NCBI GenBank assembly: GCA_038215155.1
Contig: JBBQRF010000003.1
Span: 65,904-129,903 of the forward strand
Origin: Minisyncoccia bacterium
GTDB taxonomy: Bacteria; Patescibacteriota; Minisyncoccia; Phycocordibacterales; CAJBRS01
Direction: 5' to 3'
DNA length: 64,000 nt
Part shown: positions 11,951 through 50,560 of the stretch, in pieces
Position numbering within the stretch: the stretch's first letter is position 1
How the letters are laid out: each line of letters opens with the position of its first letter
Notes under the pieces: generated by a model
The model's database searches: none
Told to the model about the DNA's origin: nothing
Seen by the model: the letters and a program-made list of their open reading frames with translations, nothing else
Program-made: the position numbers and the translations under genes

Positions 11951-12060
11951 TCCGGAAAATCCGGATGCACCCTACAACTTTTAGCGAGGGTAAGACTTGG
12001 CCTAGCGGCCCGGAGCGCCCTCGATGAAAGTTCGTAGGTGCAGGAGGATTTTCAAGATTA
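11951..12060. repeat. REP-like long palindromic intergenic element, copy A (core loop in reverse orientation)
   Basis: stems cacctacaacttttagcgaggg / ccctcgatgaaagttcgtaggtg flank loop taagacttggcctagcggcccggagcgc, the reverse complement of the loop at 29022-29050 and 31260-31287. Confidence 0.7.
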
Positions 12061-12229
12061 CCCCTCTTACGAATTTGTGAGCCATTATGGGCGCATCTAC
12101 TGAAAGGCAGGGAAGTATAGAAGCACCATACTAAGAATGATGATTATGGCCAACACCGTCATCATTACTTGCAGTGCCTTGCGATGTTTAGGATGGAAAA
12201 GCATAGGAAATAATTATATCATAGGATAA

Positions 12230-12616
12230 ATGCGGCAATTCCAGGAACGTAAAAAAATTAAAAAACGCATCTACTCTAAACCGGTAGTAATAGCTTTAAT
12301 TATTATTTTAGCTCTCTTAATCCAGGCTACCTGGAAGATCTATTTGAAAGAACGTGAAAGCGCGGCAAATTTGGCCAAAACTGAAAACCAATTAAACCTT
12401 TTGAAGAGTCGCAGCAATGTTCTTAGTGAGGATTTGAATAAACTAACCACTAATCAAGGAGTGGAGGGGGAAATTCGCAGTAAATACGAAGTGGCAAAAT
12501 CAGGAGAACAAGTCATTGTCATTGTTGATAAAAACACCGCCACATCGTCGGCTGCTTCTGGTAATATTTTCGAGCGATGGTGGAGACACTTTCTCGATCT
12601 CTTTAAGAAAAAATAG
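12230..12616 (+). CDS. septum formation initiator family protein (FtsB/DivIC-like)
   Basis: basic N-terminus, single TM, coiled coil, EIRSKYEVAKSGEQVIVI C-terminal motif. Confidence 0.5.
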   Translation: MRQFQERKKIKKRIYSKPVVIALIIILALLIQATWKIYLKERESAANLAKTENQLNLLKSRSNVLSEDLNKLTTNQGVEGEIRSKYEVAKSGEQVIVIVDKNTATSSAASGNIFERWWRHFLDLFKKK

Positions 12617-12686
12617 CGAGATTAGTTTAGTGGCAAAACACGTGCTTCCCAAGCATGAAACGCGAGTTCGATTCTCGCATCTCGCA
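12616..12686 (+). tRNA. tRNA-Gly (anticodon CCC)
   Basis: cloverleaf GCGAGAT/ATCTCGC acceptor, anticodon loop CTTCCCAAG read manually. Confidence 0.85.
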
Positions 12687-12690
12687 CAAA

Positions 12691-12960
12691 ATGAAAAAAC
12701 ATCCCATAAAAATTCCGTATTATAAATCCCTTGAGAAATTGGCTGATAATATAGGAAATCTTCGTTATGATTTATTAGTGAAATTTCTTACTTATTTAGC
12801 AGAAAAAATCTATCAGGACGCCCTAAAAGATAAGTCGCGAGGCAGGCCGAAGTTGTCGCAGACTTTAAATAATAGCGCTAAGTATTTAAGATTAAGTAGG
12901 GACGAACTAAAGAGGGCGTGGAGGATATCTAAACCCTACATGAAGAAGGAATTAAAATGA
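12691..12960 (+). CDS. hypothetical small protein (start moved to MKKHPIKIPYY, downstream of the tRNA)
   Basis: ORF; the longer version overlaps tRNA-Gly on the same strand so the internal Met was chosen. Confidence 0.35.
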   Translation: MKKHPIKIPYYKSLEKLADNIGNLRYDLLVKFLTYLAEKIYQDALKDKSRGRPKLSQTLNNSAKYLRLSRDELKRAWRISKPYMKKELK

Positions 12961-13017
12961 GCGAAAATTTAATTTTTCTTTAAGATCTGTTCATACCAGA
13001 TTGTTTAGTATTATGGG

Positions 13018-13479
13018 ATGAAAAAACAATTAAAAAGAGGTTTTACATTAATAGAAATATTAGTTGTGATTGGCATTATTGCTATTTTGGCCGCGGTAGT
13101 CCTAATCGCGATTAACCCTGCGCGCCAATTTAAATTGGCGCGCGACTCCCAGCGTCAGAGCAACGTTACCGCCATTTTAAACGCCGTTGGCCAGGATTTA
13201 GCAGAAAATAGGGGAGTCTTTAGTTGCGGCAGCGCTTCTACTAGTTTGCCGACTGCAGAGGCCGTGATGAAAAGTAGTGGTGGTTTTGACCTTGCTCCTT
13301 GCCTAGTAACCACTTATTTATCTTCCTTGCCATTTGATCCCAGCGCTCCAGGAGCCCATTACAATAGTAATTCGGATTATGATACTGGCTACTCGATCTT
13401 CACTGATAATGATGGCCGAGTGACGGTCAAAGCTCCGTTTACTGAGTTAGCTAATCCGAAAATTTCCGTTACTCGATAA
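13018..13479 (+). CDS. type IV pilin / prepilin-type N-terminal cleavage-methylation domain protein
   Basis: MKKQLKRGFTLIEILVVIGIIAILAAVVLIAI class III signal peptide. Confidence 0.7.
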   Translation: MKKQLKRGFTLIEILVVIGIIAILAAVVLIAINPARQFKLARDSQRQSNVTAILNAVGQDLAENRGVFSCGSASTSLPTAEAVMKSSGGFDLAPCLVTTYLSSLPFDPSAPGAHYNSNSDYDTGYSIFTDNDGRVTVKAPFTELANPKISVTR

Positions 13480-13483
13480 AATA

Positions 13484-48662: not shown

Positions 48663-48666
48663 TCAG

Positions 48667-49215
48667 TCAATCCTTAACGAGGTTGATTAATGTTATAAAA
48701 TCTTCTGTCATACGCGAAATCCTTATAATATATTTGGGAGTTTTTGTAACTGATATCTTATAAATTTTTGGTACAAAATCTAGATTTTGTACCATGATCA
48801 TCACATCATTAGCAAGATCTTTTATAATTGTTGTAAAATTTACCATTTTATATCCACGGTCATAATATATAGAACCATCTGTTTGGAACAAGCCACGTAA
48901 ACACTCAACTGAGTAATTTCTATTTTCTTTGATCCAATCTGGAACTCTAACATTCTGCATAAACTTTGACCCGTTCTTCGCTTTCCACCCCAAGATGCTT
49001 TCTAGATGATTTGAATAGCAGTAAACATCAAGAGCCTTCGCTTTTCTTCTGGCCACAGATACTTTATTGTCCGGAAGTAATTTCTGAAGCGATTCTCTAA
49101 TCGTTTTAATTAAATTAGGATACCCTAAATCACAAGTAATTCTTAATCTTGTAGCCCTATTATTTGAATTTGATAAATTGCCATCACCAATGGAGAGCCC
49201 AATAACATAGGCCAT
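48667..49215 (-). CDS. LAGLIDADG family homing endonuclease (double-motif, single chain)
   Basis: start moved to MAYVIGLSIGDGNL (motif 1) because the longer ORF runs through tRNA-Leu on the same strand; second motif LRGLFQTDGSIY. Confidence 0.7.
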   Translation of the reverse strand: MAYVIGLSIGDGNLSNSNNRATRLRITCDLGYPNLIKTIRESLQKLLPDNKVSVARRKAKALDVYCYSNHLESILGWKAKNGSKFMQNVRVPDWIKENRNYSVECLRGLFQTDGSIYYDRGYKMVNFTTIIKDLANDVMIMVQNLDFVPKIYKISVTKTPKYIIRISRMTEDFITLINLVKD

Positions 49216-49244
49216 TAATTTTAAATCAGTACTTAACCTCTTAG

Positions 49245-49326
49245 TGCCAGAGGTGGGACTTGAACCCACAAGCCTTGCGGCACGCGATTTTGAGTCGCGC
49301 ATGTTTGCCAATTTCACCACTCTGGC
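49245..49326 (-). tRNA. tRNA-Leu (anticodon CAA)
   Basis: reverse complement GCCAGAGTGGTGAAATTGGCAAACATGCGCGACTCAAAATCGCGT..GTGGGTTCAAGTCCCACCTCTGGCA. Confidence 0.85.
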
Positions 49327-49402
49327 AGAATACCATAAGTCTAATGAAATTTTAATAAAAATCAATTAAATTACCTTTGAAGTTATGCTAAAATATCTTT
49401 AA

Positions 49403-50452
49403 ATGTCTTCCCAATTTTTTAGTAACTCAATATTTTGGATTGAAGTGGAAAAGGTTAAGCCCAATCCATTTCAACCGCGGCGCGACTTTGATCAGGCGCG
49501 CCTACAAGATCTGGCTGACTCCATCAGAATGTATGGCGTCCTGCAGCCTATCGTGGTGACGCGCCACGAAGTGGCGCGGGAAGATGGGGGATTAGCCACG
49601 GAATATGAACTGATTTCCGGTGAGCGGCGCCTCCGAGCTTCTAAATTAGCCGGTCTCTCTCAAGTACCGGTACTAATTCGAGCACAGGAAGAAAATGAGA
49701 GAGTGAAACTAGAACTCGCCATCATCGAAAATCTTCAAAGAGAAGATCTAAACCCAGTCGATCGCGCCCGCGCCTTTAAACGACTAGCCGATGATTTTAA
49801 CTTCAAGCATTCTCAGATTGCCGAGAAAGTAGGGAAGAGTCGTGAATACGTTACAAATACCATGCGACTTCTGGCCCTGCCAGAAGAGATGCTTAAGGCT
49901 GTGTCTGAAGGAAAAATTTCTGAAGGTCATACTCGACCACTATTGATGTTAAGCGAACGACCCGAAGAGCAAAACACCCTCTTCAAAGAAATCATTTACA
50001 AAAAATTAACAGTTCGTGAGGCCGAAGCTATTTCGCGTCGCATTGCCTACGACAGAGTGCGGAAGAAAGAGCGAGCTTTTGATCCAGAATTAGTAGAGCT
50101 CGAAGAGAGATTGGCCGAGTCGCTTGGCACCCGGGTTCAGATTGAACGAAAAGATCAGGGCGGTCGTTTGGTAATTGATTTCTTTTCTAACTCCGATCTT
50201 CAAACTATTCTAGATTTAGTAAAATCAAATCAATCAAAACCAGCGACTGAAATGATGGATAAATTTATCGCCACCGACTCCGTGGTGAAGATAGATGAAA
50301 GTGAAATTGCCGTGGCCGAAGTGGCGAATCCAGAAGGGGTAGATGAATTGACGATTGTCGAGAATTCTCAGGCTCCCATTGATGATCGCACATCTGAAGA
50401 TAAACAATCCGACGAAGAGGATCTCTACTCAATTAAGAATTTCTCAATCTGA
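49403..50452 (+). CDS. parB: ParB/Spo0J family chromosome partitioning protein
   Basis: ParB box ELISGERRLRASKLAGL and N-terminal IEVEKVKPNPFQPRRDF; no parA adjacent. Confidence 0.8.
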   Translation: MSSQFFSNSIFWIEVEKVKPNPFQPRRDFDQARLQDLADSIRMYGVLQPIVVTRHEVAREDGGLATEYELISGERRLRASKLAGLSQVPVLIRAQEENERVKLELAIIENLQREDLNPVDRARAFKRLADDFNFKHSQIAEKVGKSREYVTNTMRLLALPEEMLKAVSEGKISEGHTRPLLMLSERPEEQNTLFKEIIYKKLTVREAEAISRRIAYDRVRKKERAFDPELVELEERLAESLGTRVQIERKDQGGRLVIDFFSNSDLQTILDLVKSNQSKPATEMMDKFIATDSVVKIDESEIAVAEVANPEGVDELTIVENSQAPIDDRTSEDKQSDEEDLYSIKNFSI

Positions 50453-50470
50453 TTTTCCTCGGATTTATGC

Positions 50471-50560
50471 AAATTCGGACGAGACCTACAACTTTTAGCG
50501 AGACTTTCCCGCTATGACCGGTCTCGATGAAAGTTCGTAGGTGAGAGAGAATTTTCAGAG
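50471..50560. repeat. REP-like palindromic element, copy D (family-1 stems, different loop)
   Basis: stems cctacaacttttagcgagac / gtctcgatgaaagttcgtagg nearly identical to copy A, but loop is tttcccgctatgaccg. Confidence 0.65.

Follow-up and report, generated by a model that had tools for sequence, protein, structure and literature searches.

Hairpins of the window

The window analysed here is a 64-kb stretch (64,000 nucleotides) of a Minisyncoccia bacterium genome (GenBank assembly GCA_038215155.1, contig JBBQRF010000003.1, positions 65,904 to 129,903 of the forward strand), in which four long palindromic hairpins, copies A to D, all start within about 35 nt of a stop codon. Three of them, A, B and C, carry at their tip the same 27-nt core, which recurs across the Patescibacteria on stems of unrelated sequence, and we tentatively interpret them as members of a phylum-wide family of non-autonomous mobile hairpins. 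The gene names proposed in an earlier, sequence-only reading of this DNA (pth, S1/rpsA, gyrA, parB and lepA) are supported by Pfam families, for lepA by those recorded for its product, as is the name topA for the gene downstream of D. The hairpins and a related fragment lie as follows.

Copy A, 11956..12055, plus strand (the better-folding strand): 100-nt hairpin unit starting 7 nt past the lepA stop codon; core at 11991-12017
Copy B, 28985..29084, minus strand: inverted A unit between the convergent pth (plus) and S1-protein (minus) genes; core at 29023-29049
Copy C, 31218..31330, minus strand: perfect 20-bp stem (31240-31259 / 31287-31306) with 10-bp outer arms; core at 31260-31286
Copy D, 50471..50557, plus strand: shell copy with the A/B arms, without the canonical core; 19 nt past the parB stop codon, convergent with topA
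Half-shell fragment, 28315-28332, minus strand: CCTACAACATTTAGCGAT, between the divergent signal-peptidase and pth genes

The core, CGCTCCGGGCCGCTAGGCCAAGTCTTA, is exact at all three sites (on the minus strand in A, on the plus strand in B and C), as the sequence-only reading had stated; it counts 29 nt with its closing G-C pair and caps the long hairpins of A, B and C. No match was expected from 100 shuffles of the window, and none beyond these three was found in the window at up to three mismatches. With the family covariance model, A, B and C score 69.5, 70.9 and 81.4 bits, and they fold far better than dinucleotide shuffles, with z = -6.3 to -10.5 depending on copy and strand (about -10 for C; 0 of 200 shuffles as good), copy A reaching -54.1 kcal/mol on the plus strand against -47.4 on the minus strand.

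Copies A and B are one unit in opposite orientations, since A is 92% identical to the reverse complement of B across 100 nt; the homology is bounded by AAAATCC at its start and GGATTTT at its end, and the flanks are unrelated. A comparison of the flanks of A, B and D revealed no target-site duplication or direct repeat, and this lack, together with an inverted repeat that occupies the whole arm, sets the unit apart from a miniature inverted-repeat transposable element of the DDE-transposon type. Copy C lies between a 74-aa open reading frame (ORF) and gyrA with its core antisense to both, and its stem is unrelated to that of A and B and occurs nowhere else in the window, in agreement with the earlier view that B and C close an identical loop with unrelated stems. 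The shell shared by A and D is equally real (84% and 83% identity in the two arms), and so is the different centre of D, which scores only 9.6 bits with the same model (E = 5.7, not significant) and folds with z = -3.1 on the plus strand (1 of 200 shuffles as good) and -2.1 on the minus strand (6 of 200). Copy D is either decayed or equipped with an alternative centre.

The short-read contig L119 (Logan contig SRR19962015_714765), which bears the lepA gene of the window, stops 51 nt past the lepA stop codon, that is within copy A, and the element thus breaks assemblies.

Distribution across genomes

The core 20-mer CCGGGCCGCTAGGCCAAGTC was matched in at least 118 stretches of a collection holding one genome per GTDB species. 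The titles of the matches listed all name a lineage of Patescibacteria, or candidate phyla radiation (CPR), or else a metagenome-assembled genome without lineage name; among these lineages are Paceibacterota, Kaiser-, Adler- and Nomurabacteria, Minisyncoccia, Peribacteria and Saccharibacteria, with Candidatus Nanosyncoccus and ruminant-gut isolates in the last of them. Taxonomy was read from these record titles, and some "TPA_asm Saccharibacteria" labels may be loose; the element is found in genomes of both the Saccharimonadia and the Paceibacteria type. As for the organism of the window, its position according to GyrA and LepA homologues is within Parcubacteria/Paceibacteria. Rfam 15 gave nothing at gathering score in the window, and for copy B at E-values up to 10 only mir-1234 (15.7 bits), a chance match, and a literature search by sequence strings and by topic found no description of the element, which is undescribed as far as the searched libraries show. 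A sequencing or assembly artefact was rejected, given its occurrence in many independent studies, in frame within genes and as a series of decay stages.

Architecture of the stem and the apex

The 116 full instances, selected by the exact 20-mer and aligned on the core, are units of about 85-115 nt whose arms pair without gaps for about 28 bp; several of the figures below depend on this selection and on our simple gene caller. Standard pairs occupy 82.3% of the stem cells versus 37-48% when the 3' partner is slid, and the covariation score of 0.58, compared with 0.16 in shuffles, was reached by none of 500 shuffles. Changes on both sides are seen at 28 of the 29 stem pairs, the stems varying independently of the apex, and because the apex is near-invariant at the same time, the family does not result from simple copying of one unit. 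The outer stem columns have no consensus and GTAG is not conserved, CCTAC/GTAGG being found only in the shell of copies A, B and D of the window.

The closing pair is G-C in 109 of the 116 instances, and the position next to it is mostly G·A, A·G or A-U. The apical 27-nt module closed by this pair, 5'-UAAGACUU-GGCC-UAGC-GGCC-CGGAGCG-3', is predicted to form a 4/3-nt internal loop, two pairs, a 1x1 mismatch and a 4-bp GGCC/GGCC mini-helix with a UAGC loop. Conserved, unpaired purine-rich segments flank the mini-helix, and the loop is least conserved at its TTAC-like end. The invariance of 20 of the 27 core positions is no evidence of conservation, because the 20-mer search fixed them; copies found by covariance model R1 rather than by the 20-mer are informative on apex variation. 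With this model, the mini-helix is seen to covary from GGCC/GGCC to GGGC/GCCC in two loci (L022 and L125), and two others (L062 and L081) present a shorter apex variant, GUUGAAUU...CGAGCGC.

Two other palindromes were encountered at the core. At one locus (L078:1201-1299), a perfect 16-nt palindrome, TCCGCCAGCTGGCGGA, is nested in the mini-helix and interrupts the core. In one genome, at two loci that are not orthologous, a second small palindromic element of about 70 nt (ACCAATTTTCCTTACCCGTACTCGGGTTTAGGAAAATGG...; L111:2040-2132, L115:5255-5347 and L102:748-776) replaces one arm of the hairpin and adjoins the core at its 3' edge.

Strand asymmetry

In 101 of the 116 instances, the more stable fold is that of the strand reading 5'-GUAAGACUUGGCCUAGCGGCCCGGAGCGC (mean -53.2 versus -46.9 kcal/mol, a difference partly due to the core itself). 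In the stems alone, G-U exceeds A-C and purine-purine exceeds pyrimidine-pyrimidine mismatches in every class of gene context, most strongly (22 to 5) in copies antisense to their host ORF, so the asymmetry tracks the orientation of the core rather than the mRNA strand. This orientation is itself independent of the neighbouring genes, with 21 sense and 32 antisense copies in tandem contexts and 15 and 11, respectively, inside ORFs. At 69 of 109 loci (p = 0.0007), the local GC skew of the folding strand is negative, which weakly suggests a polarity at the DNA level that is connected with replication.

The sequence-only reading had taken the conserved loop on unrelated stems to mean a functional RNA or protein-binding hairpin rather than simple copying. 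The observation on which it was built extends to all 116 instances, although A and B turn out to be plain copies of each other, and a conventional cis-acting RNA does not agree with an orientation and a G-U excess that ignore transcription. The outcomes that the sequence-only reading had named as refuting it were not encountered, and the most economical explanation for one loop kept on so many different stems is a hairpin that is recognised, at its tip, as a single strand. An independent small RNA gene or a plain terminator is not supported either, as no -10-like promoter motif was seen upstream of the hairpin and there was no excess of T-runs after the full hairpin, where both strands are equal (28 versus 28 of 114).

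Placement at gene 3' ends and within ORFs

Genes in the matched loci were called with our own codon-usage caller, which reproduces the ORFs of the window. Intergenic copies lie in 27 convergent versus 6 divergent contexts, against a background of 122 versus 107, and copies between tandem genes lie at a median of 14 nt from the upstream stop codon and of 45 nt from the next start. Furthermore, 26 of the 116 copies (22%), none of them in the window, are located within ORFs that read straight through the hairpin with conserved motifs on both sides. The core is open in four of its six frames, and all four are used.

Sense frame 1: VRLGLAARSA, 8 ORF copies
Sense frame 2: KTWPSGPER, 7 ORF copies
Antisense frame 1: ALRAARPSLT, 6 ORF copies
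Antisense frame 2: RSGPLGQVL, 5 ORF copies

The host proteins, named from their motifs, are as follows.

RarA/MgsA: insert just ahead of the Walker B strand LFIDEIHRFNK
PrmC/HemK: insert between PRPETE and DLCAGSG
Class-I aminoacyl-tRNA synthetase (ValRS): insert past KLWNIARF
MiaA: in-frame copy
L4-like protein: in-frame copy

The same ORF sites recur across species, sometimes in opposite orientation, and independent database proteins also carry the insert. Scanning of LepA and GyrA homologues found none of the core peptides. Lineage-specific insertions of 20-70 aa, unrelated to these peptides, occur at two internal sites in several LepA homologues (P0271, P0285, P0342, P0353 and others).

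Gain and loss between relatives

In L125 (GCA_017881075.1), a relative of the window organism with a GyrA 86% identical, the order S1-MBL-small ORF-gyrA is syntenic, def stands in place of pth next to the S1 gene, and both B and C are missing: site B is reduced to 31 nt between the stop codons of the S1 gene and the converging def, and site C to 42 nt from the small ORF to gyrA. A second relative matches this double absence by gene spacing. L125 has a copy of its own after a pilin gene (57.8 bits), at a place where the window has none. Another relative, L128, whose LepA is 84% identical, is devoid of A. At the site of A, directly past the lepA stop codon, L128 contains a different, GC-rich structured insert of about 150 nt (L128:2495-2650), which suggests that the 3' end of lepA is an insertion hot spot.

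The RarA site tells a similar story. Among 120 homologues retrieved by protein similarity, the site measures 36-38 aa in some and 40-41 aa in many, intermediates have 44-49 aa and filled alleles 53-58 aa; we take the 36-38-aa site to be of the length found in E. coli RarA, and these alleles were considered empty. Filled alleles are of three frame and orientation types with unrelated arms, and two proteins 96% identical outside the site differ in both insert type and arms. In many alleles the element is decayed or lost, and short alleles keep remnants, such as a 19-nt near-perfect palindrome, AAAACCGAG-T-CTCGGTTTT, at the position of the hairpin in L124. From the comparisons of L125, L128 and RarA, gains and losses of the element thus occur over the time that separates closely related species.

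Constraint on the core and on pairing

In 28 RarA alleles of one insert type, the nine-residue core peptide has a conservation of 0.85, compared with 0.84-0.93 for the surrounding enzyme and 0.48 and 0.57 for the arms. In four alleles, the synonymous third positions of the core agree in 48 of 51 comparisons and those of the host flanks in 125 of 246 (Fisher p = 7e-10), and the overall nucleotide identity is 0.94 in the core, 0.55 in the arms and 0.75 in the host flanks. The synonymous-site effect is overstated, because two of the four alleles were picked by the exact 20-mer; in a pair selected by protein (L121/L126), 2 of the 27 core positions differ. As for the stem, orthologous copies with an arm identity of at least 0.73 show two to five double compensatory changes per comparison in six of nine pairs, and none in three CAYIFE copies. 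Only pairs above this identity are informative, since unrelated perfect stems also yield "double compensatory" counts. These changes indicate that resident copies keep their pairing, whether through selection or through template switching from arm to arm.

Other features of the window

Several long hairpins of the window have no core (39699-39750, 15173-15239, 5772-5822, 9827-9891, 26081-26156, 46997-47040 and 38006-38052), the first of which, with a perfect 23-bp stem and a 6-nt loop, abuts a tRNA gene; they may be ordinary terminators of this genome or core-less relatives of the element. A 43-nt repeat of part of tRNA-Val (20623-20696), at 20793-20835 versus 20656-20698, is 95% identical and forms no tRNA gene; it may be an att-like trace left by an integrated element. 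Three tandem paralogous small ORFs at 36523-37699 share a conserved C-terminal 90-nt block, and their syntenic genes in L125 are recorded as T4SS_pilin (PF18895). Finally, a 58-nt direct repeat (50587-50644 versus 50794-50851, 81% identity), covering both the small ORF that follows copy D and the 3' terminus of topA, may represent one more zinc-ribbon repeat of topA in degenerate form.

Discussion

Our preferred interpretation, put forward tentatively and with somewhat less than an even chance of being right, is that A, B and C belong to a Patescibacteria-wide family of non-autonomous mobile hairpins resembling the Rickettsia palindromic elements (RPEs), the tip of which would be recognised by a conserved factor on one folded strand. 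The unit would move or be copied as a whole hairpin, and what is kept would be a stem of about 28 bp of any sequence together with the 27-nt apical module, the putative recognition site of a conserved trans-acting factor. The substrate of this putative factor would be a single strand in its folded state, more probably DNA than mRNA. Insertions would survive where they do little harm, namely just past stop codons, especially between convergent genes, and in protein surface loops, which the four stop-free frames would allow. Old copies would decay or collapse to short palindromes, and copy D and the half-shell fragment would be such decayed relatives. A host function may coexist with this mobility.

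Several observations weigh against this interpretation. The visible copy number per genome is low among the matches listed, with at least 8-9 exact-core matches in the best-sampled genomes and at least 4 in one complete 805-kb chromosome. The core has no match in IMG/VR viral contigs, GenBank phages or PLSDB plasmids. Clustering of the ORFs within 2.5 kb returned only syntenic housekeeping genes, without any transposase-like family that recurs; the neighbours were found to include no transposase, reverse transcriptase or nuclease linked to the element, and the 118 loci contain no split half-cores flanking cargo, as an autonomous parent would. Most copies within one genome have unrelated outer stems, and donor-recipient pairs are few though gains look recent. 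Moreover, the conservation of the core in resident, vertically inherited copies is unexpected for a purely selfish fossil and suggests selection or conversion in place.

A less probable proposal, to which we nevertheless give serious weight, is that, throughout the phylum, a conserved Patescibacteria factor that acts on single strands in folded form recognises the apex as its signal, resident copies being actively maintained either by selection on a function at the level of the genome or by some drive (for instance preferential uptake, conversion or re-templating of the apex), and stems being made or remodelled locally. Should this be true, the heritable unit would be the tip of the hairpin rather than the repeat.

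Equally unlikely on the whole, and just as worthy of attention, is a cis element selected by the host, either a bidirectional terminator or 3'-end stabiliser with a protein-bound tip, or a DNA signal in replication, segregation or recombination, for which mobility would be incidental. It would account for the synonymous sites of the RarA core being conserved far above the host codons, with which the peptide pattern agrees, for the position just past stop codons and the enrichment between convergent genes, and for the filling of the same sites (such as the 3' end of valS, PrmC and RarA) in species with 65-80% identity in the flanks. In about half of the copies, moreover, the core on a 5-bp stem stands between an A-run and a T-run, much as in a bidirectional terminator; an inner T-run of at least 4 is seen in about 50% of the intergenic copies and in 42% of those inside ORFs. 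However, copies lie inside essential ORFs, where a terminator would do harm, their orientation is independent of transcription, and T-runs past the whole hairpin are equal on both strands. The differences in occupancy between close relatives, and the many RarA alleles in which the element is decayed or emptied, speak in the same direction.

It is improbable, more so than the preceding possibility, that only a 27-41-nt centre is mobile or templated and that the stem is produced locally by inverted duplication, by template switching or by insertion into the tip of a pre-existing hairpin. Copies of several genomes share a centre of about 41 nt on unrelated outer stems, as do the CAZROM copies with their common CGAAAG-core-CUGAGA centre. 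The net insertion in RarA is +17 to +22 aa for a hairpin that encodes 28-29 aa, remnants are short perfect palindromes, and the window has several long hairpins that lack a core, including the 23-bp stem at 39699-39750. A comparison of six RarA alleles shows a partial likeness of individual arms to empty alleles: the inner left arm of L126 agrees with the empty allele L127 at 9 of 12 nt, and the right arm of L060 with the empty allele L122 at 10 of 12 nt, matches which were noticed post hoc. On the other hand, nothing in the empty alleles corresponds to the outer arm segments of the RarA inserts, the PrmC insert is +27 aa, the length of the whole hairpin, relative to the spacing we assume for E. 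coli PrmC, and sites B and C are devoid of any hairpin in relatives. The homology of A and B over 100 nt, and that of the Minisyncoccia copies and of the copies of the complete chromosome OY970216 along the entire hairpin, shared G·U positions included, argue for copying of the whole unit.

The sequence-only reading had compared the GTAGG ends with repetitive extragenic palindromes (REPs) and their RAYT transposases. REPs are extragenic palindromes of 20-40 nt with a GTAG or CGTC tag at the stem foot, lineage-specific and present in more than 100 copies (PMC3733652, PMC2817692); REPs and REPINs are short palindromes of gene 3' ends which adopt folds as single-stranded molecules and whose mobilisation is believed to take place in trans (PMC3116915, PMC3333891). 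A REP/RAYT-type or IS200/IS605-derived palindrome (REPIN or PATE) mobilised by a Y1 HUH transposase shares with our element the position at gene 3' ends, the hairpin shape, the single-strand-specific asymmetry, the lack of a target-site duplication and, in the window, the CCTAC...GTAGG shell ends, yet it is very unlikely and the link did not withstand the comparison, since these ends are confined to the shell of the window, the units measure 85-115 nt, the conserved part is the apex instead of the stem or its foot, copies are few per genome and some are intragenic, and the neighbour clustering, an indirect test, brought up no RAYT or other Y1-transposase-like gene.

Compared with known systems, the closest likeness is with RPEs, described in PMC10969869 (citing Ogata 2000, 2002) as hairpin-forming palindromic repeats of roughly 100-150 bp found between genes and in frame within housekeeping genes. 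Common to both are a palindromic hairpin unit of comparable length, a lineage with reduced genomes, dispersed intergenic copies and insertions that keep the frame, here in RarA, PrmC, ValRS, MiaA and an L4-like protein. The element differs by its hosts, all listed matches bearing Patescibacteria titles and none being Rickettsia, and by what is conserved, the whole unit in RPE families and here only the 27-nt apex across classes, on effectively free stems. Unlike RPEs, it has no single conserved peptide, because four frames and both orientations are used. The stem-loop arrays of TIGR-Tas are also palindromic-stem hairpins of CPR bacteria, sometimes in frame in coding sequence (PMC12045711; bioRxiv 10.64898/2026.09.09.750476). 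TIGR units are tandem and stand beside a tas (Nop-domain) gene, and their loop has two 9-nt spacers of variable sequence, each of them flanked by box D and box C, whereas the element is solitary and dispersed (three copies in 64 kb) with an invariant loop; a TIGR-Tas unit was rejected on account of the solitary copies and of a loop that, by eye, does not fit the published 14-nt box D-spacer-box C pattern.

An intrinsic, possibly bidirectional, terminator is evoked by the position past stop codons and between convergent genes and by the A-run, stem and T-run of half of the copies, but here the stem runs about 18 bp past the T-run, the tip is structured over 27 nt, ORF copies exist and no T-run enrichment follows the hairpin. 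Compared by description, integron attC sites have conserved R/L boxes at the stem foot and a variable centre, which is the reverse of the present arrangement. The consensus of the K-turn, hammerhead, SRP, tRNA D-arm and CRESS nonanucleotide was not fitted in a by-eye comparison. Stem-loop origins and recognition hairpins of HUH enzymes, as well as the 3' stem-loops of SINEs read by the reverse transcriptases of LINEs, combine a specific loop with a stem that need only pair, and are read on a single strand. The resemblance to our element in these respects is one of analogy only, no Rep, relaxase or reverse transcriptase being associated with it and the TTAC-like end being the least conserved part of the loop.

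In our preferred interpretation, the element is a palindromic mobile repeat that also colonises genes, its unusual feature being a tip conserved across classes on free stems. It would constitute a second, independent case of palindromic DNA written into proteins, which is otherwise deemed a peculiarity of Rickettsia. Its core 20-mer or model R1 offers a compact annotation marker for Patescibacteria genomes, and the element is directly testable, since Saccharibacteria are cultivable and transformable (PMC10633639). Patescibacteria make up a large share of bacterial diversity, with genomes thought to be streamlined and repeat-poor, and the near-invariant 27-nt tip hints at a conserved nucleic-acid-handling activity in these bacteria.

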